From a virus (taxonomy: Duplodnaviria; Heunggongvirae; Uroviricota; Caudoviricetes), in the IMG/VR virus record IMGVR_UViG_2563366935_000005: a DNA stretch of 37,387 bases. The stretch is one strand, 5' to 3'. Numbering within the stretch: the stretch's first letter is position 1; the number at the start of each line of letters is the position of its first letter. The translations under genes and the position numbers were made by a program. A model generated the notes under the pieces. That model made no database searches. It was not told where the DNA came from and worked only from the letters and a program-made list of their open reading frames with translations. This document shows, piece after piece, positions 9,205 to 32,644 of this stretch.

Positions 9205-9205
9205 T

Positions 9206-9742
9206 ATGACAGAAACGGAAGGTTTGATAATAACAGTTGCAAAACAGCAGGCGATTAATTTTGTTGCTGTTGTTTTGTGCTGCGTTATAAGCTATTTTTC
9301 GTTCAAAAGTTTTTCCTATAATGATGCAAAAGATATTTTAGGTGCGCTTATAAATATTTCAGCATCTATATTCACTATTGTCGGTTTATGGGTCGGTTTT
9401 TTATATCCGAATGCAATGAATAGTATTGTTAAGGATGATGTAAGTTATATAAAAAATGAGCATGACTCACCAAGAATAGAGAAATTAGTTTATACAATAA
9501 TCACATCTGCTTGTGTTATGGCTGGGATTCTAATTTTCTTTTTGGTTAAGGCAGTGTTTTATGCATTACCTGTTTATCAAGCTAATAAAGACTTGTTTAA
9601 ATACATTGGTATTTTCTTCATTTACTTTATTAGCTGGATGCAATTAAAATGCGTTATGAGCCTGATTTTGAGTAATTTACATTTTGTTAATCACTTACAT
9701 GGACGTTTAGCAAAAGCGAAATTAGAACACTATGATGAATAA
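9206..9742 (+). CDS. Small polytopic membrane protein (178 aa, about four TM helices); candidate membrane effector of the cassette
   Basis: Four hydrophobic segments (about residues 17-33, 44-67, 94-121, 134-157); GGAAGG RBS; translationally coupled to the 399-aa ORF. Confidence 0.6.
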   Translation: MTETEGLIITVAKQQAINFVAVVLCCVISYFSFKSFSYNDAKDILGALINISASIFTIVGLWVGFLYPNAMNSIVKDDVSYIKNEHDSPRIEKLVYTIITSACVMAGILIFFLVKAVFYALPVYQANKDLFKYIGIFFIYFISWMQLKCVMSLILSNLHFVNHLHGRLAKAKLEHYDE

Positions 9743-9887
9743 AGTGTTCGTATTGGCAGGAGTTACTGTGGATGTTTAACCTCAACAAGAGTAAGCCTCT
9801 TTTAACATGGGAATCACCGTTCTAACAAGCTTTGCATGTCTATGCTGCATGAATCCGCATGATCGTTTTAGGATCGTTTTTGCTGAG

Positions 9888-9915
9888 GCCCGCCAGAACT
9901 GGCGGGCTTTTGCTT
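9888..9915 (+). terminator. Rho-independent terminator after the cargo cassette
   Basis: GC-rich hairpin gcccgccag-aa-ctggcgggc followed by ttttgctt. Confidence 0.6.
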
Positions 9916-9956
9916 ATGTCATGCACCTGCATGAAAACCACTACATAAAGCGGGCA

Positions 9957-9975
9957 GGCGTGGCGGGGATACGAG
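9957..9975 (+). other. Candidate cos site (ggcgtggcggggatacgag)
   Basis: First 13 nt match my recollection of the 186 cohesive end (P2-type cos begins GGCGAGGCGGGGA); lies between the right-end cargo and the Q-side genes as expected. The 3' part differs, so this is tentative. Confidence 0.3.
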
Positions 9976-9985
9976 CGCGCGCTCA

Positions 9986-10014
9986 CTGACAGTTTTCAGA
10001 AAAGTATATATAAT
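9986..10014 (+). promoter_or_regulatory. Sigma70-like promoter for the DUF4062-like gene (-35 CTGACA, 17-bp spacer, -10 TATAAT)
   Basis: Hexamers and spacing read directly; about 38 bp upstream of the ATG at 10052. Confidence 0.5.
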
Positions 10015-10051
10015 CGCCTGAAAGATCTATACGTGCAGTGGAAATCATCAA

Positions 10052-11086
10052 ATGGATAAAAGATATCAGGTTTTTGTTAGTTCAACTTTTGCTGATCTTG
10101 AAGAAGAAAGACAGGAAGTAATGCAAGCACTGCTGGAGCTTGATTGTATGCCAGCAGGAATGGAATTATTTCCAGCAACAAATAGTGATCAGTGGAGTTT
10201 AATAAAAAAAATAATTGACGATAGTGATTATTATATTGTTATCTTGGCAGGGCGTTATGGTTCAATTGGTCCTGATGGAATAAGCTATACAGAAATGGAG
10301 TATCGTTATGCTTTGGAAACTGGTAAGCCAGTTATAGGTTTTATTCATAAAGATAAAAGTAACCTCCCCGCAAAACGTTGTGAGTCAAACCCTGAAGGCG
10401 TAGAAAAACTAAAGGCTTTCGAAGAGCTAGTTAAAACAAAATTATGTCGTTTTTGGGAGTCTCCTGCAGAATTAGGTAGCCAGGTTAGCAGAAGTTTGAT
10501 TAGACTAATTAAAGAATGTCCTGCAATTGGGTGGGTTAAAGGAAATTTAGTAACTAATGATGGTGATGCAAAGGAAATATTGAAATTAAAAAGGCGAATT
10601 GAGGAGCTTGAAAGTCAACTTGTATCAAGTATGACTGAAGCGCCTGCAGGTGCAGAAAAACTATCTCAAGGAGATGAGCTTTTTGAATTGGATTATGAAT
10701 TCTGTGTGTCGCCTACAGAATGGAGACATAATGGTGAAGAATATACCGATAAGGTCAAATTAAGCTGGAACGATATTTTTTCATATGTTTCGCCTTTGAT
10801 GATAGATGAGATAGTGGATGATAAGCTATATAGTGCTTTAAATAACTGTGTGCGAAATGCAGTTCAAGATATCATCTATGAGGATTTTAAAGATATGAAT
10901 TTATTATCTTTAAAAGTATCTAATTCTGATTTTCAAACAATAAAAGTGCAGTTTAGGGCGCTTGGGTTAATTATTAAAAGTGAAAAGAGTAGAAGTGTTA
11001 AAGATAAAGGTACTTATTGGACTTTAACACCGTATGGCGAAAATTTAATGACAACATTGAGAGCGATTAAAAAAACTTTGGTATAG
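10052..11086 (+). CDS. DUF4062-like N-terminal domain protein (344 aa) with an uncharacterised C-terminal region containing a coiled-coil-like segment; candidate single-gene defence protein
   Basis: N-terminus YQVFVSSTFADLEEERQEVMQALLELDCMPAGMELF...ILAGRYGS matches the DUF4062 pattern as I recall it; AT-rich; own promoter and terminator; not part of the P2 core gene set. Confidence 0.6.
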   Translation: MDKRYQVFVSSTFADLEEERQEVMQALLELDCMPAGMELFPATNSDQWSLIKKIIDDSDYYIVILAGRYGSIGPDGISYTEMEYRYALETGKPVIGFIHKDKSNLPAKRCESNPEGVEKLKAFEELVKTKLCRFWESPAELGSQVSRSLIRLIKECPAIGWVKGNLVTNDGDAKEILKLKRRIEELESQLVSSMTEAPAGAEKLSQGDELFELDYEFCVSPTEWRHNGEEYTDKVKLSWNDIFSYVSPLMIDEIVDDKLYSALNNCVRNAVQDIIYEDFKDMNLLSLKVSNSDFQTIKVQFRALGLIIKSEKSRSVKDKGTYWTLTPYGENLMTTLRAIKKTLV

Positions 11087-19040: not shown

Positions 19041-19434
19041 AGCGGTGCCTTATGTCCGCAATAACCCGGACAAACTGCATCTGTTTGTGGATAACGGTTC
19101 GCTGGTTGCCACGGGGGCCAGCTCCATGTCATGGGAGTACCGCTATACCCTGAACGTGGTGATAGAGGATTTCAGCGGCGACCAGAATCTGCTGATGGCC
19201 CCGGTTTTGCTGTGGCTTCGGGATAACCAGCCCGATGCCATCAATAACCCGGCGTTACGGGAAAAGCTATTCACCTTTGAGGTGGATATTTTGCGCAACG
19301 ATGTCTGTGATATCAGCCTTAACCTGCAACTGACGGAACGTGTGCTGGTCAGCACTGACGGCAGTGTGTCGAGCGTTGAAGCTGTAGCAGAACCCGATGA
19401 ACCTGAAGAAATGTGGACGGTGAAACGTGGCTGA
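19003..19434 (+). CDS. R: Tail completion protein R (P2 gpR-like), 143 aa from GTG 19003
   Basis: Resembles P2 R (LRHALNKAVPYVRNNPDKLHLFVDNGS..., YTLNVVIEDFSGD..., LWLRDNQPD); AGGAG RBS 7 nt upstream of the GTG; the ORF-track start at 18982 is TTG. Confidence 0.75.
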   Translation: MNKPQSLRHALNKAVPYVRNNPDKLHLFVDNGSLVATGASSMSWEYRYTLNVVIEDFSGDQNLLMAPVLLWLRDNQPDAINNPALREKLFTFEVDILRNDVCDISLNLQLTERVLVSTDGSVSSVEAVAEPDEPEEMWTVKRG

Positions 19435-19873
19435 ACTGCAGAAGGTGGACGACTGGCTGAGTGCCTTGCTGGCGAATCTGGAACCAGCCACGAGAAGCCG
19501 CATGATGCGCCAGCTGGCGCAGGAACTGCGCCGGACACAGCAGCAGAATATCAGGATGCAGCGCAATCCAGATGGCAGCAGTTATGAACCGCGCAGGGTA
19601 ACAGCACGCAGCAAGAAGGGGCGCATCAAACGTCAGATGTTTGCAAAGCTGCGCACCACAAAATACCTGAAAACTGCCGCCAGCGCCGATTCTGCCAGCG
19701 TACAGTTTGAAGGCAAGGTGCAGCGTATTGCCCGTGTTCACCATTACGGCCTGCGTGATCGCGTCAGTCGCAAAGGACCGGAGGTCCGTTACGTAGAGCG
19801 CCGCCTGCTGGGTGTAAATGATGATGTTGAGGCAATGACCCGCGACATGATTCTGCAATGGCTGGCGGGGTGA
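19427..19873 (+). CDS. S: Tail completion protein S (P2 gpS-like), 148 aa
   Basis: GTG start overlapping the R stop; position and size match P2 S. Confidence 0.75.
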   Translation: MAELQKVDDWLSALLANLEPATRSRMMRQLAQELRRTQQQNIRMQRNPDGSSYEPRRVTARSKKGRIKRQMFAKLRTTKYLKTAASADSASVQFEGKVQRIARVHHYGLRDRVSRKGPEVRYVERRLLGVNDDVEAMTRDMILQWLAG

Positions 19874-19919
19874 CTTTGATAACCGTAATCAGAATTTTGT
19901 CAGTTCGGTTTAATGTGAG

Positions 19920-21209
19920 TCAATTGGTAAAAATTCTACTCTGCTCACCATAGCTGTCCTTTGCTTCGTTAATCAGATCCTCCCATGGCCATTTTATGGT
20001 TACATATTTTCGATAAATTAAAATGGTTCTGTCGATAGCAGTGACCTCATCAGTTGCATCATTGTAGGAAAGAACTAACCCTCTATCGTCACTATCAACC
20101 TGTAACTCTTCAATTTTTTGAAGTACAGTTCGCAGATTCCCTTTTAATATTCGACTTTGTCTTCTTGACGCAATTTTAAAAATGGTATCTAACTCTAATC
20201 CTTGAATGAGTTCTTTATCGGATGAGTCCATTATTACAGCCATGGCATGAGCATAAATGCCAGTGGTTTCTGTTCTTTTACGTATTCCTGATGATATATC
20301 TTTAGCAAATTTTTGATATCGAGAATTTAATTGTTCAGCATATTTCATGGCTGCATCAACGAATTTTTCTTGATCATCTAACATCGTTAATGTTGTACAT
20401 TCCTCATCAATTCCTGTCTCGTCAAGAATGTTTAAGGCTAGTTGTTGTAAAATCCCAACATTACCATAGCAATCATCAAGGATGCATCTCTTTATATGAT
20501 CTGAGAACTTAACTTTTAAAGTTTCTGATCCACTTATTATTACTTGTTCAAGATCGGCTCTAGACCATGATATGGGAATTTCTTCTATGCGAGAACCAAG
20601 GTCAGAATTTAAATAAATTAGTAGGTTTGTTTTTGTCCAAACACCAATGATTACGAAAAAACAACCATAATCCCAAAGCGCCTTTAAGTCATAAGCAAAT
20701 ATTTGTCGTTCACGAGTGTTTAAGTAGTGAAAATCTTCAATAACTACTTTTCTTCCTGCTTCGTTAATTATTTCTGCAATAAATCTCAAATCATTAATAT
20801 CTTGACCAACATTTCCTTTTTTTATTACCTCCTCTTCAGAGGTCTCAAGTCCAAATTTAACCTTTAGTTTTGCTATAAGACCAATGCCTCCTGCAGCAGA
20901 GCCCTCCATTACGCCTTTAATTGTATCTTTTTCGGTTCTCTCTAGCACAAGGCTTATACCTAATTGAGATAGAATATCTATATATATATCTAAAACGGTT
21001 GTCTTTAATCTGCATTGTACAACAATAGCATTAGGTATGTTCTTTTGTCTTAACCATGACTTACCACATTTGGATTCCCCTCTTAAGGCGAGATGTATTG
21101 GTCGGCGTAATTTTCTACTGATTTCCTTATCAAGATTTCCTCTGTCTACATATGAATCAGCAAGAATCGTTGGTGAAATACCAAAAACTTCGTGTGTTTG
21201 TTTCTTCAT
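19920..21209 (-). CDS. Stand-alone P-loop NTPase (429 aa) encoded antisense in an AT-rich moron between S and V; candidate defence or abortive-infection ATPase
   Basis: Walker A GESKCGKS near residue 45 and a Walker B-like hhhhDE (KVVIEDFH); ATG at 21207-21209 with GAGG RBS; opposite strand to the late operons; at the position where P2 carries its variable orf30. Confidence 0.65.
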   Translation of the reverse strand: MKKQTHEVFGISPTILADSYVDRGNLDKEISRKLRRPIHLALRGESKCGKSWLRQKNIPNAIVVQCRLKTTVLDIYIDILSQLGISLVLERTEKDTIKGVMEGSAAGGIGLIAKLKVKFGLETSEEEVIKKGNVGQDINDLRFIAEIINEAGRKVVIEDFHYLNTRERQIFAYDLKALWDYGCFFVIIGVWTKTNLLIYLNSDLGSRIEEIPISWSRADLEQVIISGSETLKVKFSDHIKRCILDDCYGNVGILQQLALNILDETGIDEECTTLTMLDDQEKFVDAAMKYAEQLNSRYQKFAKDISSGIRKRTETTGIYAHAMAVIMDSSDKELIQGLELDTIFKIASRRQSRILKGNLRTVLQKIEELQVDSDDRGLVLSYNDATDEVTAIDRTILIYRKYVTIKWPWEDLINEAKDSYGEQSRIFTN

Positions 21210-21229
21210 GATGGCCTCACTATCCGTTT

Positions 21230-21247
21230 TGTACTGTTTATCACACA
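21230..21247. promoter_or_regulatory. Ogr-type late activator box TGT-N12-ACA upstream of V
   Basis: tgt actgtttatcac aca, centred about 55 bp upstream of the V start; lies in the divergent region shared with the antisense NTPase gene. Confidence 0.5.
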
Positions 21248-21293
21248 AACAATACTAAAGGAAAGCCGCTTTCTTTTAATTAACTATATCCAT

Positions 21294-21872: not shown

Positions 21873-22228
21873 CGCTTTATAGCGGGATGAACAATACCAG
21901 CGGTAAAGCCATTACTGATATTGACCATCTGCGCCAGTCGGTGCGGGACATTCTGCTGACGCCGCAGGGTAGCCGCATTGCCCGTCGGGAATATGGTTCC
22001 CTGCTGTCGGCACTGATTGATCAGCCACAAAATCCGGCATTACGCCTGCAGGTTATGTCGGCTGTGTATGTGGCACTGAGTCGCTGGGAGCCACGGCTGG
22101 CGCTCGATTCCATCACTATTAACAGCAATTTTGACGGTTCAATGGTGGTGGAGCTGAGCGGGCGGCGTAATAACGGTGTGCCTGTTTCCCTTTCCGTATC
22201 AACAGGAGCAGAGAATGGCAGTGATTGA
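21869..22228 (+). CDS. W: Baseplate protein W (gp25-like), 119 aa
   Basis: Size and position; ATGA overlap with V. Confidence 0.85.
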   Translation: MTLYSGMNNTSGKAITDIDHLRQSVRDILLTPQGSRIARREYGSLLSALIDQPQNPALRLQVMSAVYVALSRWEPRLALDSITINSNFDGSMVVELSGRRNNGVPVSLSVSTGAENGSD

Positions 22229-23123
22229 CCTTTCGCAGTTGCCTGCGCCGCAGATTGTGGATGTGCCGGACTTTGAGACGCTGCTTGCCGAACGCAAGGC
22301 AGAATTTGTGGCGCTTCATCCGAAAGATGAGCAGGAAGCAGTGATGCGTACGCTGGAACTGGAATCTGAACCCGTCACCAAATTGTTGCAGGAGAACGCT
22401 TACCGTGAGTTGCTTCTGCGCCAGCGCATTAACGAAGCCGCGCAGGCGGTGATGGTGGCTTACGCGATGGGCGGCGATCTTGACCAGCTCGCTGCTAACT
22501 ACAACGTGAAACGCCTGACGGTGACACCTGCTGATGATGATGCTGTACCGCCCGTTGCGGCTGTGATGGAAAGTGATGAAGCGTTACGCCTGCGTGTGCC
22601 TGCAGCCTTTGAAGGGCTTTCTGTTGCTGGGCCAACTGCCGCTTATGAGTTTCATGCACGAAGCGCCGATGGTCGGGTGGCGGATGCCAGTGCAACCAGT
22701 CCGGCACCTGCAGAGGTGGTGCTGACAGTTCTTAGCCGCGAAGGCGACGGAACAGCAGAAAAAGACCTGCTGGATGTGGTGGAGAAAGCACTGAACAGTG
22801 AGAATGTCCGCCCGGTGGCTGACCGTCTGACGGTTCGCAGCGCGGAAATCATCCCGTACCGCGTGGAAGCCACCATTTTTCTCTATCCGGGACCGGAAGC
22901 AGAGCCGGTAATGGCAGCGGCAAAAGCCAGCCTGCAGAGGTACATTGCCAGTCAGACGCGGCTTGGTCGGGATATTCGCCGTAGCGCCATTTTTGCCGCG
23001 CTGCATGTTGAGGGTGTTCAGCGTGTGGAACTGGCTTCCCCGCAGGCGGACGTGGTCCTGAACAAAACGCAGGCGGCATCATGTACGCAGTGGAGCGTGA
23101 CTAACGGGGGAACGGATGAATAG
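22215..23123 (+). CDS. J: Baseplate protein J, 302 aa
   Basis: ATG at 22215 with AGGAG RBS gives 302 aa, the same length as P2 J. Confidence 0.85.
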   Translation: MAVIDLSQLPAPQIVDVPDFETLLAERKAEFVALHPKDEQEAVMRTLELESEPVTKLLQENAYRELLLRQRINEAAQAVMVAYAMGGDLDQLAANYNVKRLTVTPADDDAVPPVAAVMESDEALRLRVPAAFEGLSVAGPTAAYEFHARSADGRVADASATSPAPAEVVLTVLSREGDGTAEKDLLDVVEKALNSENVRPVADRLTVRSAEIIPYRVEATIFLYPGPEAEPVMAAAKASLQRYIASQTRLGRDIRRSAIFAALHVEGVQRVELASPQADVVLNKTQAASCTQWSVTNGGTDE

Positions 23124-23721
23124 TCTGCTGCCACCGGGTTCAACGCCACTGGAGCGCCGACTGGCGCAAACCTGCAACGGGATTTCTGATCTGCAGGTGT
23201 CACTGCGTGACTTGTGGAATCCGGCAACCTGTCCGGTCAGTTTCCTGCCTTATCTCGCCTGGGCGTTCTCTGTGGATCGCTGGGACGAGGGCTGGACAGA
23301 AAGCGTCAAACGCCAGGTAGTGAAGGATGCTTTTTATATTCATCAGCACAAAGGAACCACCAGTGCCGTACGGCGGGTGGTGGAGCCGTTCGGCTTCCTG
23401 ATCCGCATTATTGAGTGGTGGCAGACCGGAGAAACACCGGGCACGTTTCGCCTGGACATTGGTGTGCAGGACCAGGGCATCACTGAAGATACCTATCTGG
23501 AACTTGAGCGACTGATAAGCGATGCCAAACCATGTAGCCGTCACATGATCGGCATGTCCATCAATCTGCAGACCAGCGGCCCGCATTGGGTGGGAGCCGT
23601 CAGTTATCTTGGCGAAGAAATCACGATCTATCCGTATATCAACGAAACAATTATTTCCGGCGGCACCGCGCATGAAGGCGGGGCGGTCCATGTTATTGAC
23701 ACAATGAGAGTGAATCCATGA
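23116..23721 (+). CDS. I: Baseplate/tail protein I, 201 aa
   Basis: Position between J and H; overlapping starts typical of the P2 baseplate operon. Confidence 0.8.
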   Translation: MNSLLPPGSTPLERRLAQTCNGISDLQVSLRDLWNPATCPVSFLPYLAWAFSVDRWDEGWTESVKRQVVKDAFYIHQHKGTTSAVRRVVEPFGFLIRIIEWWQTGETPGTFRLDIGVQDQGITEDTYLELERLISDAKPCSRHMIGMSINLQTSGPHWVGAVSYLGEEITIYPYINETIISGGTAHEGGAVHVIDTMRVNP

Positions 23722-25115
23722 GCACAAAATTTTATACCCTGCTGACGGATATTGGCGCGGCGAAACTTGCCAGCGCCGCCGCGCTCGGTGTGCCGCTAAA
23801 AATTACCCATATGGCGGTGGGCGATGGCGGCGGAGCATTGCCAACGCCGGACGCAAAGCAGACGGCACTGGTAAATGAGAAACGCCGGGCTGCGCTGAAT
23901 ATGCTCTATATCGACCCGCAGAACAGCAGCCAGATTATTGCTGAACAGGTGATCCCTGAAAATGAGGGGGGTTGGTGGATACGTGAAGTGGGTCTGTTTG
24001 ATGAGTCCGGGGCATTGATTGCCGTAGGCAACTGCCCGGAAAGCTATAAGCCGCAACTGGCTGAAGGCAGCGGGCGCACCCAGACCGTGCGCATGGTGCT
24101 GATTACCAGCAGTACGGACAATATCACCCTGAAAATCGACCCTGCTGTAGTGCTGGCAACCCGTAAATACGTGGATGATGAAGTCCTGGAATTAAAGCTG
24201 TATGTGGATGACCAGATGAGAAACCACATTGCCGCACAAGATCCTCATACCCAGTATGCGCAGAAACATAATCCGACATTTACCGGAGAACCAAAAGCGC
24301 CGACGCCTGCAGCAGGAAATAACACCACGCGGATTGCGACCACTGAGTTTGTTCAGGCCGCTATTACTGCTCTGATTAACGGTGCGCCAGCCACGCTGGA
24401 CACACTGAAAGAAATTGCCGCAGCCATTAACAATGACCCGAAATTCAGTACCACCATTAACAATGCGCTGGCACTAAAAGCGCCGCTGTCGAGTCCGGCA
24501 CTCACCGGAACGCCAACAGCACCTACTGCGGCGCAGTCGGTCAACAATACACAGATTGCCACTACGGCTTTTGTGAAATCGGCGATTGCAGGAATGGTGG
24601 GTTCTGCACCTGCGGCACTGGATACACTGAACGAACTGGCGGCGGCACTGGGGAATGATCCGAACTTTGCCACGACAATGCTTAATGCGCTGGCAGGTAA
24701 ACAACCGCTGGACAATACGCTTACCAATTTGAGTGGAAAGGATGTAGCTGGTCTTCTCACATACCTTGGTTTGGGAGAATTATCTCTGGCTGGCACTGCA
24801 TCGGGTGTCATTGGTCTGAATGGGTATGTAACGATTCCGTTAATTATTTCAGGTTCCCGGAGAACACTGATTATTCAGTGGGGGCAGGCGAGATTTGGTG
24901 GGTCTGGTGGTGAAGATGCCGGATATCTTAATGATTTTCCTTTTGCCTTTCCGTCAGCATGTAATGGGGTGATAGTTAGTCATGTGGGGTATACACCTTC
25001 AGGCGCAGGAATCCTGTCGGCTTCTGCAATTACATCAAATCAGTTCCGCGGTTTTTCAAGCATAGCGACTGCTGCAAACGCTGTATTTGGTCGTTATATC
25101 GCTATAGGGGTGTAA
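23718..25115 (+). CDS. H: Tail fibre protein H (constant N-terminus plus currently expressed variable C-terminus), 465 aa
   Basis: P2 H-like N-terminus (MSTKFYTLLTDIGAAKLA...); two internal repeats (TRIATTEFVQAAITALINGAPATLDTLKEIAAAINNDPKF and TQIATTAFVKSAIAGMVGSAPAALDTLNELAAALGNDPNF); contains an invertase crossover site near codon 350. Confidence 0.85.
   Translation: MSTKFYTLLTDIGAAKLASAAALGVPLKITHMAVGDGGGALPTPDAKQTALVNEKRRAALNMLYIDPQNSSQIIAEQVIPENEGGWWIREVGLFDESGALIAVGNCPESYKPQLAEGSGRTQTVRMVLITSSTDNITLKIDPAVVLATRKYVDDEVLELKLYVDDQMRNHIAAQDPHTQYAQKHNPTFTGEPKAPTPAAGNNTTRIATTEFVQAAITALINGAPATLDTLKEIAAAINNDPKFSTTINNALALKAPLSSPALTGTPTAPTAAQSVNNTQIATTAFVKSAIAGMVGSAPAALDTLNELAAALGNDPNFATTMLNALAGKQPLDNTLTNLSGKDVAGLLTYLGLGELSLAGTASGVIGLNGYVTIPLIISGSRRTLIIQWGQARFGGSGGEDAGYLNDFPFAFPSACNGVIVSHVGYTPSGAGILSASAITSNQFRGFSSIATAANAVFGRYIAIGV
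24754..24779. repeat. Hin/Gin-type recombination site 1 (ttctcacatacc tt ggtttgggagaa), left end of the invertible segment
   Basis: 26-bp imperfect palindrome resembling hix/gix sites; its right arm plus centre (ttggtttgggagaa) is repeated in inverted orientation at 26596-26609. Confidence 0.5.
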
Positions 25116-25116
25116 T

Positions 25117-25554
25117 ATGTTTTATAGTCCATCTTTAAACATTTTTGTGAATCCTGCACTTAAGGATGATTACATTAATGCAAATTCATGGCCAGATGAT
25201 GCTCTGGCTATCAGTGATGATGTTTATAATGAATTTGCAATAAATACGCCCCCAGATGGCAAAATTCGTGTTGCAGGAGAAAATGGATTACCCACATGGG
25301 CACTAATACCTCCACCATCACATGAAGAACTTATTCAACAGGCAGAATCAGAAAGGCAATTATTGCTTAATCTGGCCAACGAATACATGAACAGTAAACA
25401 ATGGCCCGGTAAAGCCGCTATTGGTCGTCTGAAAGACGAGGAACTGGCGCAATATAATTTGTGGCTGGATTACCTGGACGCACTGGAGCTGGTTGATACC
25501 TCCAGTGGGCCAGATATTGAATGGCCTACGCCTCCGGCAGTTCAGGCCAGATGA
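25117..25554 (+). CDS. G: Tail fibre assembly chaperone (G/Tfa-like), 145 aa
   Basis: Immediately after H; conserved Tfa C-terminal region (NLWLDYLDALELVDTSSGPDIEWP). Confidence 0.75.
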   Translation: MFYSPSLNIFVNPALKDDYINANSWPDDALAISDDVYNEFAINTPPDGKIRVAGENGLPTWALIPPPSHEELIQQAESERQLLLNLANEYMNSKQWPGKAAIGRLKDEELAQYNLWLDYLDALELVDTSSGPDIEWPTPPAVQAR

Positions 25555-26128
25555 CATCCGGCGCTGTGCTGGTATCTGTTGCCGTCACCGCGTCAATGTA
25601 ATCCAGCACAGTGTTAAGTCGGGTGGTCTCTGCCTGCATCAGCTGCCGCCCGGCCTGCAATTTAAGTTGAATCAGACTGATGGAAGCCATTGCAGTATTA
25701 ATCAGTGACTGACGCTGTACTTCTGCCGCGTCTACTGCGGCGCTATGCTGTGCCTCAGTATCGGTCACCCATTTCTTACCATCCCATTTATCGAATGGCG
25801 TTAACGGGGCGATAGTGGTTGTATTTTCAGGATAATCACCCGGAGCTGTGATTTCTTTGGCGTCTCCCGTTTCGGTGTTATAGACGATTTCACCGCGATG
25901 GTCTGGCACATATTCCCATGAGTTTAAATCCATCGAACGGCAGATAGCATAACCCGCCTTATGTATACCAGGTTCATCCAGACAGGAATATGCTGGGATA
26001 CCGACACCAATGGCAAGATATTCATTTGAAGTAGAAATATATTCCCGAGTTTTACCATCATAGTTATAGACGGTAATATTCCCCGCCTTCGTGGCAATAA
26101 GCTCGCTATTTAATACGGCGTTATCCAT
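25526..26128 (-). CDS. Alternative tail fibre assembly chaperone (Tfa'), inside the invertible segment, 200 aa
   Basis: Opposite strand, converging on G; C-terminus (NTVLDYIDAVTATDTSTAPDVIWPELPEA) parallels that of G. Confidence 0.7.
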   Translation of the reverse strand: MDNAVLNSELIATKAGNITVYNYDGKTREYISTSNEYLAIGVGIPAYSCLDEPGIHKAGYAICRSMDLNSWEYVPDHRGEIVYNTETGDAKEITAPGDYPENTTTIAPLTPFDKWDGKKWVTDTEAQHSAAVDAAEVQRQSLINTAMASISLIQLKLQAGRQLMQAETTRLNTVLDYIDAVTATDTSTAPDVIWPELPEA

Positions 26129-26649
26129 TATGCAGCCCTCACGATATAGTTAAATGCAATATTTCGTGGACGGGTTTCACTCCCGCCAGTATTACCGATA
26201 CTCCCTCGTGAATGAAGTGTCGGTGATGGGATCAGACTCCCTCCTGTATTTGTGGCATCAAGTCCCCGTCCTTGTGTGTATGTCTTTTTGAAAATCGTAG
26301 CCAGTTCCCATTCATCTTTTGTGTCGTAACCATCATTGGCAACAACAATATGGCGGTGTTTTTCCAGCATCCCTGTCTGAATGCTCAATAAAACACGTCC
26401 TGCATCAATACCGCGCCCGTCATCCCAGCCACGAATAAACTCACCACGTAAATCAGGCAATTTATTTGTCGGATAAGCCTTTGCCAGTTCCGGGTATTCT
26501 TCAGCAGAAAAATCCGCACCGTTGCATTTCAGCCAGCCTGTTGGCGGTGTGGCTGAAGGCCATGGAACAGGCACACCAACAGGTAATGCAGAGCCTTCTC
26601 CCAAACCAACGTTTAAGAAAATGCAGCGATTACGACTAACTGGCATCAT
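26128..26649 (-). CDS. Alternative tail-fibre C-terminal receptor-binding segment (H'), expressed only after inversion fuses it to H
   Basis: Shares the GLGE junction residues with H at the crossover; tail-collar-like motifs (LKCNGADFSAEEYPELAKAY...LPDLRGEFIRGWDDGRGIDAGR); has no promoter or constant N-terminus of its own in this orientation. Confidence 0.65.
   Translation of the reverse strand: MMPVSRNRCIFLNVGLGEGSALPVGVPVPWPSATPPTGWLKCNGADFSAEEYPELAKAYPTNKLPDLRGEFIRGWDDGRGIDAGRVLLSIQTGMLEKHRHIVVANDGYDTKDEWELATIFKKTYTQGRGLDATNTGGSLIPSPTLHSRGSIGNTGGSETRPRNIAFNYIVRAA
26596..26621. repeat. Hin/Gin-type recombination site 2 (ttctcccaaacc aa cgtttaagaaaa), right end of the invertible segment
   Basis: Inverted copy of the site-1 arm; located at the 5' end of H' and just upstream of the invertase gene. 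Confidence 0.5.
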
Positions 26650-26676
26650 CCCCGGTTTTTATTCAGGAGATTGATC

Positions 26677-27243
26677 ATGCTTATTGGCTATGTACGCGTG
26701 TCAACAAATGACCAGAACACCGATTTGCAACGTAATGCACTGAACTGCGCGGGATGTGAGCGGATTTTTGAGGACAAAATCAGTGGCACTAAGTCCGACA
26801 GACCGGGGCTTAAAAAACTGCTCAGGACACTATCGGCAGGTGACACACTGGTTGTCTGGAAGCTGGACAGGTTGGGGCGCAGTATGCGGCATCTTGTTAC
26901 GCTGATAGAAGAGTTGCGCCAGCGCGGCGTGAATTTCCGAAGCCTGACTGACAGTATTGATACCAGTACCCCAATGGGCCGTTTCTTTTTTCATGTCATG
27001 GGTGCCCTGGCTGAAATGGAACGCGAACTGATAGTTGAACGTACCAGGGCAGGGCTGGCTGCAGCTCGTGCTAAAGGCAGAGTAGGTGGACGCCGTCCTA
27101 AGTTGACTACCGAACAGTGGGCACAGATTGGGCGTTTACTCGAGGCCGGAGAATCAAGACAGCGTATTGCACTGATTTTTGATGTAGGCGTTTCTACCAT
27201 TTATAGAAAATTTCCGGCAAATAAGAGCAATGAATCTCCCTGA
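26677..27243 (+). CDS. Serine recombinase DNA invertase (Hin/Gin/Cin/Pin family), 188 aa
   Basis: N-terminal catalytic motif LIGYVRVSTNDQ with the Ser nucleophile; C-terminal HTH; AGGAGA RBS; adjacent to the invertible tail-fibre segment. Confidence 0.85.
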   Translation: MLIGYVRVSTNDQNTDLQRNALNCAGCERIFEDKISGTKSDRPGLKKLLRTLSAGDTLVVWKLDRLGRSMRHLVTLIEELRQRGVNFRSLTDSIDTSTPMGRFFFHVMGALAEMERELIVERTRAGLAAARAKGRVGGRRPKLTTEQWAQIGRLLEAGESRQRIALIFDVGVSTIYRKFPANKSNESP

Positions 27244-27291
27244 ATCAGCATTATTTTGATTATTCCTGCAAGCGGACAAATACCGTCATTT

Positions 27292-27309
27292 TGTGTGAAT
27301 AACGGTACA
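27292..27309. promoter_or_regulatory. Ogr-type late activator box TGT-N12-ACA upstream of FI
   Basis: tgt gtgaataacggt aca, about 85 bp upstream of the FI start codon. Confidence 0.5.
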
Positions 27310-27385
27310 ACTGCGTTTAGCTGTTTGTCGGACACAATCACTTCAACATAGGGCGAAGCCTAATCCAATCAGGAGGTTCGCCGCT

Positions 27386-28558
27386 ATGGCTCAGGATTAC
27401 CACCACGGGGTGCGCGTTGTTGAAGTCAACGAAGGCACCCGATCCATTACCACGGTGAGCACCGCCATCGTGGGTATGGTCTGCACGGGCGATGATGCCG
27501 ATGCAAAAATGTTTCCTCTTAATAAACCCGTGCTGATCACTGATGTGCTGACTGCCAGCGGTAAAGCGGGTGAGTCCGGTACGCTGGCCCGTTCGCTGGA
27601 CGCCATCGCTGACCAGGCAAAACCCGTGACCGTTGTTGTGCGTGTGCCGCAGGGTGAAACGGAAGAAGAAACCACGACCAATATCATCGGAGCAGTGACC
27701 GCTGAAGGTAAAAAAACAGGCATGAAAGCCTTGTTATCTGCCCAGTCACAGCTTGGCGTTAAACCGCGCATTCTCGGCGTGCCAGGCCACGACACCAAGG
27801 CGGTAGCTACTGAGTTGCTGAGCGTGGCGCAAAGCCTGCGTGGATTTGCTTACCTGTCAGCGTATGGCTGCAAGACGGTACAGGAGGCGATCACTTACCG
27901 TGAAAACTTCAGCCAGCGCGAAGGGATGCTGATCTGGCCTGACTTTACTGGCTGGGACACGGTGCTGAATGCCGAAGCAACGGCATATGCCACCGCCCGT
28001 GCGCTTGGTCTGCGCGCCAAAATTGACGAGCAGACCGGATGGCACAAAAGCCTGTCCAACGTGGGCGTGAACGGTGTCACCGGAATTTCTGCTGATGTGT
28101 TCTGGGATCTGCAGGACACGGCAACAGATGCGGGACTGCTGAACCAGAACGACGTCACCACCCTTATCCGCAAAGACGGTTTCCGCTTCTGGGGTTCCCG
28201 CTGCCTGAGTGATGACCCGCTCTTTGCCTTCGAAAACTACACCCGCACGGCGCAAGTACTTATGGACACAATGGCAGAAGCGCATATGTGGGCGGTGGAC
28301 AAACCGCTGAACCCGTCGTTGGCCCGCGACATTATCGAAGGTATCCGCGCCAAAATGCGCAGCCTGGTCAGTCAGGGCTATCTCATTGGTGGTGATTGCT
28401 GGCTGGATGAGTCGGTGAACGACAAAGATACTCTGAAAGCCGGGAAGCTCACCATCGACTACGACTACACGCCAGTGCCGCCACTTGAAAATCTGATGCT
28501 GCGTCAGCGCATCACCGATCAGTACCTGGTGAATTTCTCCAGCCAGGTCAGCGCGTAA
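27386..28558 (+). CDS. FI: Contractile tail sheath protein (P2 gpFI-like), 390 aa
   Basis: Size and position ahead of the tube gene; P2 FI-like sequence. Confidence 0.9.
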
Positions 28559-28567
28559 GGGGACAAC

Positions 28568-29083
28568 ATGGCTTTACCACGCAAATTAAAACACCTGAAC
28601 CTGTTTAACGACGGGAACAACTGGCAGGGGATCGTTGAGTCGCTGACGCTGCCGAAATTCACCCGCAAATATGAGAAGTATCGCGGCGGCGGAATGCCGG
28701 GGGCGGTGGATGTGGATCTGGGGCTTGATGACAGTGCTCTGGACACAGAATTTTCCATTGGTGGTACTGAGCTACTGCTGTTTAAGCAGATGGGCAAAGC
28801 CACGGTGGATGGCATCCAGTTGCGCTTTACCGGCTCTATCCAGCGTGATGATACCGGGGAAGTGCAGGCCGTGGAGCTTGTGGTGCGTGGACGTCACAAA
28901 GAAGTGGATTCCGGCGAGTGGAAGACGGGCGAAAGCAACACCACTAAAGTGACCAGTACCAACAGCTACGCGAAGCTGACTATCAATGGTGAGGTGCTCT
29001 ATGAAGTGGACCTTATCAACATGGTGGAAATTGTGGACGGTGTGGACCTGATGGAAGCGCACCGCAACGCCCTCGGCCTCTGA
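28568..29083 (+). CDS. FII: Tail tube protein (P2 gpFII-like), 171 aa
   Basis: Size (P2 FII is about 172 aa) and position. Confidence 0.9.
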   Translation: MALPRKLKHLNLFNDGNNWQGIVESLTLPKFTRKYEKYRGGGMPGAVDVDLGLDDSALDTEFSIGGTELLLFKQMGKATVDGIQLRFTGSIQRDDTGEVQAVELVVRGRHKEVDSGEWKTGESNTTKVTSTNSYAKLTINGEVLYEVDLINMVEIVDGVDLMEAHRNALGL

Positions 29084-29440: not shown

Positions 29441-29574
29441 CGGTTGACGATCTGGTGGCAGATATCGCCACCATTTTTCACTGGCCGCCATCCGTTACTG
29501 ACGTTATGCCGCTGACCGAAGTGCTGGAATGGCGGTATAAAGCGATTCAGAGAAGCGGGGCCAACGATGAGTGA
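29138..29574 (+). CDS. Tail assembly chaperone E+E', product of a programmed -1 frameshift at T_TTT_TTG (29395-29401)
   Basis: Slippery heptamer in the 0 frame (ACT TTT TTG); the -1 frame stays open for 57 codons to TGA at 29572-29574, overlapping the T start, as in P2 E/E'. Confidence 0.6.
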
Positions 29575-32500
29575 TAATAACCTGCGCCTGCAGGTCATTC
29601 TTAATGCGGTTGACAAACTCACCCGCCCATTCCGTGCTGCACAGGCCAGTTCGAAAGAGCTGGCTGGCGCAATTCAGAATACCCGAAACAGCCTCAAAGA
29701 ACTGAATAAGCAGGCTGGCAGAATTGATGAATTTCGCAAGACGCGCTCGCAACTAGCTATAACAGCCAACAACCTGAACGCAGCCCGCGAAGAGGCGGCA
29801 AAACTCGCCACACAATTTGCTGCCACTAACAGGCCAACCGCCGCGCAGGCAAAGTTATTCAGTCAGGCCAAAACACGAGTACAGGAACTTCAGCAGACCT
29901 ATAACGGCTTGTTGGGGGCGGTCCAGAGACAACGTCAGGCACTTAAAGAATCAGGGATTGATACCAGACAACTCAGTAGTGCCCAGCGAGAACTTAAGAA
30001 AAATGCTGAAGAAACAAGGCAGGCACTGGAGGGCCAGCAAAAAGCACTTAAACGTCTGGGTGAACAACAGGCACGGATGAACGCTGCCAGAGAACAATAC
30101 TCAAGACGGCTTGAAGTGCGCGATCGCATCGCAGGAGCCGGAGCCACTACCACGGCTGCAGGGCTGGCAATGGGTGCGCCAGTGATGGCGGCAGTAAAAA
30201 GCTATATCAGCATGGAAGATGCCATGAAAGGTGTGGCAAAGCAGGTCAATGGTCTGCGTGACGATAATGGCAACCGCACTGCACGCTTTTATGAAATGCA
30301 GGATGCCATCAAGGCTGTCAGCGAACAGTTGCCGATGGAAAATGGTGCGGTGGACTTCGCTGCACTGGTTGAAGGTGGTGCGCGCATGAACGTCGCAAAC
30401 CCTGACGACAGCTGGGAAGACCAGAAACGTGACCTGCTGGCCTTCGCCAGTACGGCAGCAAAGGCGGCAACAGCCTTTGAGCTGCCAGCGGATGAACTGT
30501 CAGAAAGTCTGGGGAAAATCGCCCAGCTCTACAAAATACCTACCCGCAATATTGAACAGCTCGGCGATGCGCTGAACTATCTGGATGATAACGCTATGTC
30601 GAAAGGGGCGGACATCATTGATGTGATGCAACGTCTGGGCGGTGTGGCTGACCGTCTGGATTATCGTAAAGCGGCGGCACTGGGTTCCACCTTTCTGACA
30701 CTGGGCGCTGCGCCGGAGGTTGCAGCCAGTGCAGCAAACGCGATGGTGCGTGAATTGTCCATTGCCACCATGCAAAGCAAGAGTTTCTTTGAAGGGATGA
30801 ATCTGCTGAAACTCAATCCTGAAGTGATTGAAAAGCAGATGACGAAGGATGCGATGGGAACTATCCAGCGTGTGCTGGAGAAGGTGAACGCACTGCCGCA
30901 GGACAAGCGTCTGTCTGCCATGACCATGTTGTTTGGTAAAGAGTTTGGTGATGACGCGGCGAAACTGGCAAACAACCTTCCGGAACTGCAGCGCCAGCTA
31001 AAACTGACAGCGGGCAATGATGCGCTCGGTTCCATGCAGAAAGAATCCGACATCAACAAAGACTCACTTTCTGCTCAGTGGTTGCTGGTCAAAACCGGAG
31101 CGCAGAACACCTTCAGCAGCCTGGGCGAAACGCTGCGCCAGCCGCTGATGGATATTCTGTACACGGTGAAAAGCATCACGGGGGCGTTGCGCCGCTGGGT
31201 GGAAGCTAACCCGGAACTGACAGGCACACTGATGAAAGTAGCGGCTGTTGTGGCTGCGGTTACCGTAGGCCTCGGCACCTTAGCGGTGGCGCTGGCTGCA
31301 GTGCTGGGGCCGCTGGCAGTCATCCGTCTGGGATTCTCTGTGCTGGGTATCAAAACGTTATCTTCCGTTACGGCAGCAGTAACACGAACCAGCAGCGCGT
31401 TGTCCTGGTTAGCTGGCGCTCCACTGGCACTGCTGCGACGCGGGCTTGCTTCATCGGGCAACGCAGCGGGTTTACTTACTGCGCCGTTGTCGTCTTTGCG
31501 CCGCACGGCATCACTGACGGGGAATGTCCTGAAAACTGTAGCAGGTGTGCCGGTTGCACTGTTGCGGTCTGGATTATCCGGTTTACGTGCTGTTGCTGTG
31601 ATGTTTATGAATCCACTGGCAGCACTACGCGGTGGACTGGCTGCCGCAGGCTCGGTGCTGCGAGTACTGGCATCTGGTCCGCTGGCGATGCTGCGAGTTG
31701 CCCTGTATGCCATATCTGGTCTGTTAGGTGCTCTGCTCAGTCCGATAGGTCTTGTGGTTACTGCACTGGCGGGCGTGGCGCTGGTTGTCTGGAAATACTG
31801 GCAACCCATCACCGCATTTCTCGCTGGTGTGGTGGAAGGATTCAAAGCGGCGGCAGGTCCCATCAGTGCAGCATTCGAACCACTTAAGCCTGTGTTTCAG
31901 TGGATTGGCGACAAAGTGCAGGCGTTGTGGGGCTGGTTTACTGATCTGCTGACGCCCGTTAAGTCGACCTCTGCCGAACTGCAGAGCGCAGCGGCAATGG
32001 GGCGACGATTCGGGGAGGCACTGGCGGAAGGGCTGAATATGGTCATGCATCCGCTGGACTCCCTGAAATCCGGCGTTTCCTGGTTGCTGGAGAAACTCGG
32101 CATTGTCAGTAAAGAGGCTGCAAAGGCGAAACTGCCGGAAAGAGTGACGCGTCAGCAACCTGCGACTGTGAATGCAGACGGTAAAGTGATGATGCCATCG
32201 GGTGGTTTTCCATCATGGGGATATGGCTTTGCGGGGATGTATGACAGCGGCGGGTATATCCCGCGCGGGCAGTTTGGTATCGTCGGTGAAAACGGGCCGG
32301 AAATTGTTAACGGCCCGGCAAATGTGACCAGCCGGAGAAATACCGCTGCACTGGCTGCCGTTGTTGCCGGAATGATGGGCGTTGCTGCCGCGCCTGCAGA
32401 GCTTCCACCGTTGCACCCTTTGGCACTTCCCGCGAAAGGCGGCGAAGCGATGGTGAGTCGTGCAGCCACTGTGCCGCCCGTTCAACGGATTGAGGCACCG

Positions 32501-32644
32501 ATGCAGATCATCATTCAGACGCAGCCAGGACAAAGTGCGCAGGATATTGCGCGGGAGGTAGCCCGCCAGCTTGATGAACGCGAACGCAGGCTGAAAGCAA
32601 AAGCCAGGAGTAACTACAGCGATCAGGGGGGATACGACGCATGA
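29567..32644 (+). CDS. T: Tail tape measure protein (P2 gpT-like), 1025 aa
   Basis: Largest tail ORF after E/E'; long helical N-terminal half and Ala/Gly/Leu-rich hydrophobic middle region typical of tape measure proteins. Confidence 0.85.
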   Translation: MSDNNLRLQVILNAVDKLTRPFRAAQASSKELAGAIQNTRNSLKELNKQAGRIDEFRKTRSQLAITANNLNAAREEAAKLATQFAATNRPTAAQAKLFSQAKTRVQELQQTYNGLLGAVQRQRQALKESGIDTRQLSSAQRELKKNAEETRQALEGQQKALKRLGEQQARMNAAREQYSRRLEVRDRIAGAGATTTAAGLAMGAPVMAAVKSYISMEDAMKGVAKQVNGLRDDNGNRTARFYEMQDAIKAVSEQLPMENGAVDFAALVEGGARMNVANPDDSWEDQKRDLLAFASTAAKAATAFELPADELSESLGKIAQLYKIPTRNIEQLGDALNYLDDNAMSKGADIIDVMQRLGGVADRLDYRKAAALGSTFLTLGAAPEVAASAANAMVRELSIATMQSKSFFEGMNLLKLNPEVIEKQMTKDAMGTIQRVLEKVNALPQDKRLSAMTMLFGKEFGDDAAKLANNLPELQRQLKLTAGNDALGSMQKESDINKDSLSAQWLLVKTGAQNTFSSLGETLRQPLMDILYTVKSITGALRRWVEANPELTGTLMKVAAVVAAVTVGLGTLAVALAAVLGPLAVIRLGFSVLGIKTLSSVTAAVTRTSSALSWLAGAPLALLRRGLASSGNAAGLLTAPLSSLRRTASLTGNVLKTVAGVPVALLRSGLSGLRAVAVMFMNPLAALRGGLAAAGSVLRVLASGPLAMLRVALYAISGLLGALLSPIGLVVTALAGVALVVWKYWQPITAFLAGVVEGFKAAAGPISAAFEPLKPVFQWIGDKVQALWGWFTDLLTPVKSTSAELQSAAAMGRRFGEALAEGLNMVMHPLDSLKSGVSWLLEKLGIVSKEAAKAKLPERVTRQQPATVNADGKVMMPSGGFPSWGYGFAGMYDSGGYIPRGQFGIVGENGPEIVNGPANVTSRRNTAALAAVVAGMMGVAAAPAELPPLHPLALPAKGGEAMVSRAATVPPVQRIEAPMQIIIQTQPGQSAQDIAREVARQLDERERRLKAKARSNYSDQGGYDA

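Follow-up and report, generated by a model that had tools for sequence, protein, structure and literature searches.

An invertible tail-fibre segment of the Pin type in a P2-like prophage of Escherichia coli

Introduction

The 37,387-nucleotide stretch of phage DNA analysed here (IMG/VR record IMGVR_UViG_2563366935_000005, hereafter referred to as the window) very probably carries a Pin-type inversion switch of tail-fibre specificity, belonging to the Din family (Hin, Gin, Cin and Pin) and located in a complete Escherichia coli P2-like prophage next to ybjL. The segment lies in one orientation in some E. coli genomes and in the other in others, in each case at >99% identity, which suggests, indirectly and at the level of the population, that it inverts. 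Here, we describe the prophage and the layout of the segment, its recombination sites and its invertase, and then weigh the alternative explanations, propose a model for the switch and compare it with known systems.

Prophage context

The window encodes P2-type tail domains (Tail_P2_I, Baseplate_J, sheath and tube), and its genes follow the order V-W-J-I-H-G ... FI-FII-E-T-U-D-ogr, together with a capsid, terminase and portal of the P2 family; its relatives are members of the Peduoviridae. It is 96-98% identical at the DNA level to a PGAP-annotated prophage with a P2-family capsid, GPO scaffold, ogr/Delta and late control D. An initial annotation, made from the letters of the window, had placed the segment within a P2-type tail gene cluster of a P2-like prophage, and the P2-type domains and the DNA identity to a P2-annotated prophage both support this assignment. 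In addition to the tail genes, the window contains an integrase, CI repressor, replication endonuclease, portal, terminase, capsid, lysis genes and ogr. In Pectobacterium and Xenorhabdus, according to work cited in PMC4272514, tail clusters of the P2 type that have invertible fibres serve as tailocins, and the cluster described here could be conceived of as a domesticated tailocin (an R-type bacteriocin) in which a killing spectrum is switched, as in carotovoricin Er, and not a phage host range. We give this reading next to no credence: the P2-type gene complement is full, from integrase to capsid, lysis genes and ogr, and the DNA of the close relative Cartapus, an inducible prophage of strain LF82 whose invertase is identical, is packaged and released.

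Layout of the segment and in-silico inversion

The fibre locus of the phage switch is composed of a constant part outside the invertible segment and two tip and chaperone pairs within it:

23718-25115, + strand: tail-fibre gene H, 465 aa in the window orientation
23718-24765, + strand: constant part of H (Hc), ~350 aa, ending ...LTYLG, outside the invertible segment
24766-26609: invertible segment, 1844 bp core to core
24780-25115, + strand: variable fibre C-terminus 1 (tip 1), 111 aa, Pfam Gp53-like_C (E=2.7e-10), the tip expressed in the window orientation
25117-25554, + strand: tail-fibre assembly chaperone 1, 145 aa, Pfam Caudo_TAP (E=3.6e-33), PHROG 188, co-oriented with tip 1
25526-26128, - strand: tail-fibre assembly chaperone 2, TfaE-like, 200 aa, Pfam Caudo_TAP (E=3.8e-31), co-oriented with tip 2
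26128-26595, - strand: variable fibre C-terminus 2 (tip 2), 155 aa, tail-collar, Pfam Collar (E=2.5e-15), silent here

The two cassettes are convergent, with tip 1 and chaperone 1 on the + strand and chaperone 2 and tip 2 on the - strand, and the 3' end of chaperone 2 overlaps chaperone 1 by 29 nt. The alternative fibre ORF as called extends from 26128 to 26649 (- strand), and its start ATG at 26649 lies outside the segment. All four ORFs of the segment, as well as the invertase gene, are intact, with no frameshift and no stop. When 24766-26609 is inverted in silico, an open frame of 509 aa is obtained, the first 354 aa of which are common with the native 465-aa H. At the crossover both fibre versions read GLGE, and the inner arm of the recombination site encodes LGLGE in both. 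The initial annotation had described the bracketed content in these terms (the variable 3' part of H and its chaperone, and an alternative chaperone and fibre segment on the opposite strand), had noted GLGE in both fibre versions and had expected inversion to splice the alternative tip in frame; the ORFs are as it described them, GLGE is seen in the translations and the inverted junction is indeed in frame (509 versus 465 aa).

H starts with a Pfam Phage_tail_fib N-terminal domain (aa 1-150, E=3e-65) common to the two versions, whereas the two tips are, by Pfam, unrelated in fold (Gp53-like_C versus Collar), so that they likely recognise different receptors. Tip 2 is 57% identical to HK97 Stf, and the best relatives of tip 1 among 50,697 phage records are weak (at most 46% identity). 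The tips were also considered as relatives of Mu S/S', which was rejected as BLASTP gave no match; the homology to Mu therefore concerns the logic of the switch and not the tips.

Recombination sites

The segment is delimited by two 26-bp sites:

24754-24779: left recombination site (pixL/cix-like), TTCTCACATACC-TT-GGTTTGGGAGAA, core dinucleotide 24766-24767
26596-26621: right recombination site (pixR-like), TTCTCCCAAACC-AA-CGTTTAAGAAAA, core 26608-26609

These form the best-scoring inverted repeat of the region 22000-29000 (26 nt, 21/26 complementary). The two sites, which are in inverted orientation, have the same inner arm of 14 bp, TTGGTTTGGGAGAA, and their 2-bp cores are TT on the left and AA on the right (TT on the opposite strand). 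A search of the window with the Hin-family consensus TTCTCNNAAACCNNGGTTTNNGAGAA, allowing up to 3 mismatches, returned two matches, namely these two sites, and none in 100 shuffles. The left site deviates from the family consensus at one position, and the fit of the right site is poorer in its outer half, CGTTTAAGAAAA. Two inverted 26-bp sites with a common 14-bp arm had already been proposed, and the same coordinates were recovered here as the only consensus matches in the window. An exact 14-bp inverted repeat is expected by chance ~0.09 times per 7 kb and ~2.6 times per whole window, and as a signal by itself it was rejected for this reason; the significance of the sites comes from the match to the full 26-bp consensus together with the context. 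Like the Mu gix and e14 boundary sites (both taken from reference sequence) and the annotated P1 cix sites, both are 26-bp imperfect dyads with identical cores, and the match to the gix, cix and e14 dyads extends to parts that are non-coding or outside the shared peptide. A shufflon with a third site, such as that in one EPEC P2-like prophage, was also considered and rejected, as neither the 26-bp consensus (up to 3 mismatches) nor the 14-bp arm (up to 2 mismatches) has a third copy in the window.

Invertase and putative enhancer

Next to the right site lies the gene for the recombinase, with a candidate enhancer inside it:

26677-27243, + strand: Pin/Cin/Gin-type serine DNA invertase, 188 aa, full-length
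26695-26766: putative Fis-dependent recombinational enhancer, at the position corresponding to that of the enhancer annotated within P1 cin

The protein contains a Resolvase domain (PF00239, E=2.2e-53) and an HTH_7 domain (PF02796, E=1.4e-15), belongs to PHROG 125 DNA invertase (E=8.8e-101) and aligns without gaps over residues 1-184 with the Mu Gin structures 3UJ3/4M6F (E ~1e-92). It keeps the catalytic Ser9, and it shares VRVST, KLDRLGRSM (including DRLGR) and M114 with wild-type Gin as well as with Cin and PinE. It thus has the features of the Din family: an N-terminal resolvase catalytic domain with the Ser9/10 nucleophile and the conserved Arg/Asp, a C-terminal HTH and a length of ~185-195 aa. 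Among characterised invertases its identity is highest to e14 PinE (86.7%), followed by P1 Cin (79%) and Mu Gin (74.6%); the Cartapus enzyme is 100% and that of pro483 86% identical. The gene lies 56 bp from the site in every relative examined. A Hin/Gin-type invertase had been predicted immediately downstream of the segment, and a full-length small serine invertase with Ser9 and DRLGR is present there, although its closest characterised relative is Pin and not Gin or Hin. A simple scan of the + strand upstream of the gene gave no match to a sigma-70-like promoter, an uninformative result.

The initial annotation had also suggested looking for a Fis-dependent enhancer near the 5' end of the gene, within its coding sequence. 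Positions 26695-26766 align with P1 31678-31749, annotated as 'enhancer of Cin-mediated C-segment inversion', with identities of 56/72 to P1 (78%), 52/72 to Mu and 63/72 to pinE in a sequence that is also coding-constrained, and two G-N13-C motifs at 26698 and 26747 are found in the same places in Mu. Position and sequence thus agree with P1 and Mu, but synonymous conservation over codons 7-30 (0.53 versus cin and 0.36 versus gin) is not in excess of that over codons 31-130 (0.41 and 0.39, respectively). By analogy with these phages, a Fis-dependent enhancer in this part of the gene is plausible, but the synonymous sites lend it no independent support.

Both orientations in E. coli genomes

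The window itself holds one orientation only. This orientation is found, full length and in one piece, in E. coli VTB97584v (NZ_CP178707.1, 99.6% identity), and the flipped orientation, likewise full length and in one piece, in E. coli NMBU-W12E19 (NZ_CP042892.1), which is 99.4% identical to the in-silico flipped sequence. The junctions in NZ_CP042892.1 are exactly those predicted, the breakpoints falling within the 14-bp arm common to both sites, and one CDS of 1530 nt is annotated for the fused fibre. Both genomes encode the same invertase protein (WP_000905026.1) and the same TfaE-like protein (WP_000368086.1). At least 80% of the native form is covered by 52 E. coli records, and at least 80% of the flipped form by 79. 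The initial annotation had named a single orientation with an inactive invertase as the case that would overturn its reading; public genomes contain both orientations, and the invertase ORF is intact.

Could the switch be a fossil, correct in anatomy but no longer inverting in this prophage, with an unexpressed invertase or a degraded enhancer or right site, the orientation fixed and the alternative tip a silent relic? The single orientation in the window, the promoter scan without a match, the departure of the right-site outer arm from the consensus and the putative status of the enhancer would all fit such a loss. We nevertheless regard it as improbable, since the ORFs of the segment and the invertase are intact, >99% identical copies with identical invertase protein and sites are found in both orientations across strains, and e14 flips in culture with the same deviant right site, different by 1 nt.

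Another explanation for the two orientations is RecA recombination or horizontal replacement of the fibre region, the 26-bp repeat being a conserved GLGE coding motif. The arm does encode LGLGE, conserved in both fibre versions, and an exact 14-bp inverted repeat is, given the chance expectation above, not improbable in 37 kb. However, efficient RecA recombination usually needs far more homology than 14 bp, and the sites fit the 26-bp gix/cix/e14 dyad beyond the coding peptide, with identical inverted cores. Moreover, a dedicated invertase accompanies the site at the same 56-bp distance in each relative examined, and the flipped genome differs by ~0.6% from the in-silico inversion, with no mosaic boundary except at the sites. 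We consider this explanation very improbable.

Proposed model and its significance

In the proposed model of a Pin-type switch, the P2 late operon (V-W-J-I-H) would transcribe into the segment from the left, and we infer that transcription comes only from outside. The 188-aa invertase would bind the two 26-bp sites, cut the TT cores and rotate the strands by 180 degrees, which would flip the 1844-bp segment. Fis bound to the putative enhancer in the 5' end of the invertase gene probably assists inversion, and dependence on Fis and the enhancer would be expected. In the window orientation, the 465-aa fibre would be made with its gp53-like tip, along with the chaperone of 145 aa; after flipping, the product would be the 509-aa fibre, which ends in a collar/Stf-like tip, along with the TfaE-like chaperone of 200 aa. 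A population of lysogens would then give rise to two virion types differing in receptor specificity and, presumably, in host range.

The feature is real but of an already well-known kind, a presumed switch of phage host range, and its importance beyond correct annotation is slight. PGAP-type annotation lists the silent tip as a 'phage tail protein' of its own and the invertase under the generic name 'recombinase family protein'. Taking the switch into account explains near-identical prophages with seemingly different fibre genes (465 versus 509 aa), and it serves as a warning that the assembly of such a lysogen shows one genotype where two coexist. Anyone predicting or engineering phage host range would find here a single P2 scaffold with two pairs of tip and chaperone. 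More tentatively, and without leaning towards it, we put forward that the switch may alternate between a collar tip of the common Stf/StfE-like kind and a rare gp53-like tip of 111 aa (perhaps for an uncharacterised receptor), and that the half consisting of the pix site, Pin and tfaE/stfE may behave as a mobile module common to prophages of the e14 and P2 types, with free exchange of the other arm. If true, the cassettes would represent a natural library of receptor-binding tips.

Comparison with known systems

The Mu G/Gin and P1 C/Cin systems follow the same logic, with Sc outside, Sv/U and Sv'/U' inside, an adjoining invertase and 26-bp dyad sites and, in P1, an enhancer annotated in the 5' end of the invertase gene. 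The locus described here has this architecture: a constant N-terminus outside, opposite-strand C-termini inside, each with a chaperone, and both fusions in frame. The TT core is shared with P1 cix (annotated crossover in cixL), whereas the Mu core is TC/GA. The segment is shorter (1.8 kb, whereas that of Mu measures 3.0 kb and that of P1 4.2 kb), its variable parts (111 and 155 aa) are much shorter than those of Mu and P1 and, unlike in these phages, the backbone is P2-type.

Canonical phage P2 is not known to encode an invertase. In the P2-like pro483, the 'P2' of O157:H43 T22, Cartapus (LF82) and the EPEC E2348/69 prophages, the fibre locus is likewise located between I/H and the sheath gene FI, and pro483, Cartapus and the T22 P2-like phage have sites like those found here. 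The variable tips of such Peduoviridae fibre loci change from phage to phage. One EPEC P2-like locus has three sites and is a shufflon, whereas the present locus has two sites only.

Judged by sequence, the e14 P segment of E. coli K-12, with its invertase Pin (pinE, stfP/tfaP and tfaE/stfE), is the nearest of the characterised systems, ahead of Mu G/Gin and Salmonella Hin. The initial annotation had called the locus a switch of the Mu G-segment type, which holds for the architecture and the in-frame fusions, with the refinement that the e14 segment is closer. Like the segment here, that of e14 is ~1.8 kb long, and the gene order is also the same: the constant part of the fibre is followed by tip 1 with its chaperone, then by chaperone 2 and tip 2 in reverse, and finally by the invertase. 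The inner half-site and core of its left site are identical to those of the left site here, and its right site, TTCTCCCAAACC-AA-CGTTTATGAAAA, is 1 nt different. The tfaE arm and the invertase are 84-88% identical to the window at the DNA level, with TfaE 86% identical to chaperone 2 and StfE 60% identical to tip 2, whereas the other arm has diverged (StfP, 37% over 64 aa to tip 1; TfaP, 50% over 117 aligned residues to chaperone 1). e14 is a defective prophage and stfE of K-12 a pseudogene, whereas the prophage described here is an intact P2-type one in which both fibre versions are complete. Inversion of such loci has been demonstrated by sequencing and PCR in e14 and in the P2-like prophages of EPEC E2348/69 (PMC4272514).

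Prophage context

The window comprises a P2-type Escherichia coli prophage, essentially complete and adjoining ybjL. Pfam searches find an integrase, a CI repressor and a DinI-like gene together with baseplate J, tail protein I and sheath, and the DNA is 96-98% identical to the prophage of E. coli VTB97584v (NZ_CP178707.1), for which PGAP gives the whole P2 gene set, including the P2-family capsid, GPO scaffold, late control D and ogr/Delta; both results agree with the P2-like assignment in the initial annotation. Related phages are classed in Peduoviridae. Set beside this gene content, a domesticated tailocin appears improbable.

A 442-aa ORF (19920-21248, -) is set on the opposite strand, flanked by the tail-completion gene S (19427-19873) and the baseplate gene V; the NZ_CP178707.1 prophage, elsewhere 97-98% identical, lacks it (alignment gap, window 19877-21289). 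This ORF has no Pfam domain; it does match PDC-S59, a candidate defence protein in PADLOC (E=1.9e-197), and looks like a candidate defence moron occupying the 'orf30' position of P2. A variable hotspot (8005-11086, +), with the replication gene on one side and the portal gene on the other, contains ORFs corresponding to PADLOC candidates PDC-M18A (8005-9204) and PDC-M18B (9206-9742) and one with a DUF4062 domain (10052-11086); the related prophage L001 has a DUF262 protein instead. Within the tape-measure gene (29567-32644), 29679-30109 does not align to L001, which is 97-98% identical elsewhere, and seems to be a stretch of local variation.

Organization of the invertible segment

Features of the segment and its flanks
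23718-25115, +, H tail fibre, 465 aa, with P2-type N-terminal fibre domain and gp53-like C-terminal domain
24754-24779, left site, TTCTCACATACCTTGGTTTGGGAGAA, forming with the right site the strongest inverted repeat in 22000-29000
25117-25554, +, chaperone 1, 145 aa, Caudo_TAP
25526-26128, -, chaperone 2, 200 aa, Caudo_TAP
26128-26595, -, alternative fibre C-terminus, tail-collar domain
26596-26621, right site, TTCTCCCAAACCAACGTTTAAGAAAA, inverted partner of the left site
26677-27243, +, serine invertase, 188 aa, Resolvase and HTH_7

In an inverted-repeat search of 22000-29000, the left and right sites (26 nt) are complementary at 21 of 26 positions; they agree in all 14 bp of the inner arm, and TT in the centre of the left site and AA in that of the right are one and the same core once orientation is considered. 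A 14-bp exact inverted repeat alone is not improbable (chance expectation about 0.09 per 7 kb and about 2.6 per whole window). The Hin-family 26-bp dyad consensus, with up to three mismatches, is found at two places in the window, which are these sites, and nowhere in 100 shuffles; a search across the window gave no third copy. Repeat search and consensus scan thus concur with the earlier proposal of two inverted hix/gix-like sites sharing a 14-bp arm.

ORFs and domains likewise bear out that the sites bracket the 3' part of H with its chaperone and, on the opposite strand, a second chaperone and fibre segment. Read mechanically, the alternative fibre ORF runs on to an ATG at 26649, and the invertase starts 56 bp beyond the right site, on the right side of the segment. 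The chaperone genes are convergent with a 29-nt overlap (25526-25554), and an 18-nt inverted repeat in their 3' ends (25464-25481 / 25590-25607, 89% complementary) most likely reflects homologous C-terminal coding of both chaperones on opposite strands (WLDYLDAL vs VLDYIDAV).

As anticipated from the initial reading of the junction, in-silico inversion of 24766-26609 joins H residues 1-354 (...LTYLGLGE) in frame to the collar-type tip, and it leaves both sites unaltered. The resulting fibre has 509 aa and is directly followed by the 200-aa chaperone. The alternative tip is one of the Stf/collar group, which is very common, and the gp53-like tip, in the expressed orientation, has at most 46% identity to any relative among deposited phage genomes; judged by such comparison, its want of a close relative is the sole mildly unusual point of the locus.

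A TGT-N12-ACA element (TGTGTGAATAACGGTACA) at 27292-27309, ahead of the sheath gene that starts at 27386, resembles the Ogr-dependent P2 late promoter element. This points to the H-G operon on one side of the invertase cassette and an intact P_F promoter on the other.

Evidence for inversion

Both orientations occur naturally. The native 3.6-kb sequence is present at full length and in a single piece in NZ_CP178707.1 (99.6% identity), as is the in-silico flipped sequence in NZ_CP042892.1 of E. coli NMBU-W12E19 (99.4%), where the junctions match the prediction exactly (...CTCACATACCTTGGTTTGGGAGAAGGCTCTGCATTACCT... and ...GAGATAATTCTCCCAAACCAACGTTTAAGAAAATGC...) and the fused fibre is annotated as one 1530-nt CDS. 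The invertase and the TfaE-like chaperone are each identical between these two genomes. At a coverage of at least 80% among complete E. coli genomes, the native form is found in 52 records and the flipped form in 79. At the level of the population these findings are strong evidence that the segment inverts site-specifically, crossing over inside the common 14-bp arm; that RecA recombination or horizontal replacement changed the orientation is considered unlikely. Flipping in a single culture has been shown by paired-end sequencing and PCR for e14, a cryptic prophage of E. coli K-12, and EPEC E2348/69 P2-like prophages (PMC4272514). The same cassette is IS-interrupted in some E. coli (IS421 in NZ_CP047277.1, IS1A in NZ_CP060065.1).

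Invertase and putative enhancer

The gene immediately downstream encodes, as annotated initially, a serine invertase, and the enzyme is intact: residues 1-184 align gap-free to Mu Gin crystal structures (E ~1e-92), and the catalytic VRVS9T and KLDRLGRS motifs, as well as Met114, are exactly those of Gin, Cin and PinE in the reference genomes. Next to this, a fossil switch, one that has lost the ability to invert, seems unlikely. Identity is 86.7% to e14 PinE, 79% to P1 Cin, 74.6% to Mu Gin and 100% to the invertase of Cartapus, a spontaneously induced P2/Fels-2-like prophage of E. coli LF82 (PMC9928086).

In the P1 record the enhancer for Cin is placed within cin itself, at nt 19-90. The homologous stretch, 26695-26766, shares 56 of 72 positions with P1, 52 with Mu and 63 with pinE, and the G-N13-C motif occurs in it twice (26698 and 26747), positioned as in Mu. 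Because this stretch also codes for the catalytic N-terminus, which is highly conserved, and shows no raised synonymous conservation, a Fis-dependent enhancer within the invertase gene is a reasonable but putative assignment.

Proposed mechanism

A Pin-type inversion switch is very probably the mechanism. P2 late transcription would enter the segment from the left via V-W-J-I-Hc (Hc being the constant 5' part of H), and the rightward-facing tip and chaperone cassette would be the one expressed. The invertase, probably with Fis, would exchange strands at the TT cores, flipping the 1844-bp segment. Because the segment would flip with only the rightward cassette expressed, a lysogen population would produce virions with either a gp53-like or a collar/Stf-like tip.

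Relationship to known systems

Scanned with the same Hin-family consensus as the window, reference loci yield Mu gixL/gixR, P1 cixL/cixR and the two e14 segment-boundary sites; the P1 record places the crossover inside the TT core of cix. Among the sites compared, those of e14 are closest: the left (CTCTCGAAAACC-TT-GGTTTGGGAGAA) is identical to the window's left site in inner arm and core, and the right (TTCTCCCAAACC-AA-CGTTTATGAAAA) differs from its counterpart by 1 nt. Equivalent segments flanked by the same sites are found in pro483, Cartapus and 'P2' of O157:H43 T22, and among 5426 complete E. coli genomes, 3078 carry sequence resembling this region. P2-like prophages carrying the cassette are abundant and inversion in them has already been reported; the window's switch is a known feature of a well-known kind. 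The interpretation as a Mu G-type fibre switch within a P2-type tail cluster is supported, with a host-range difference as its probable consequence; Mu G/Gin and P1 C/Cin operate in the same way, and among characterised systems the e14 P segment, with Pin, comes closest.
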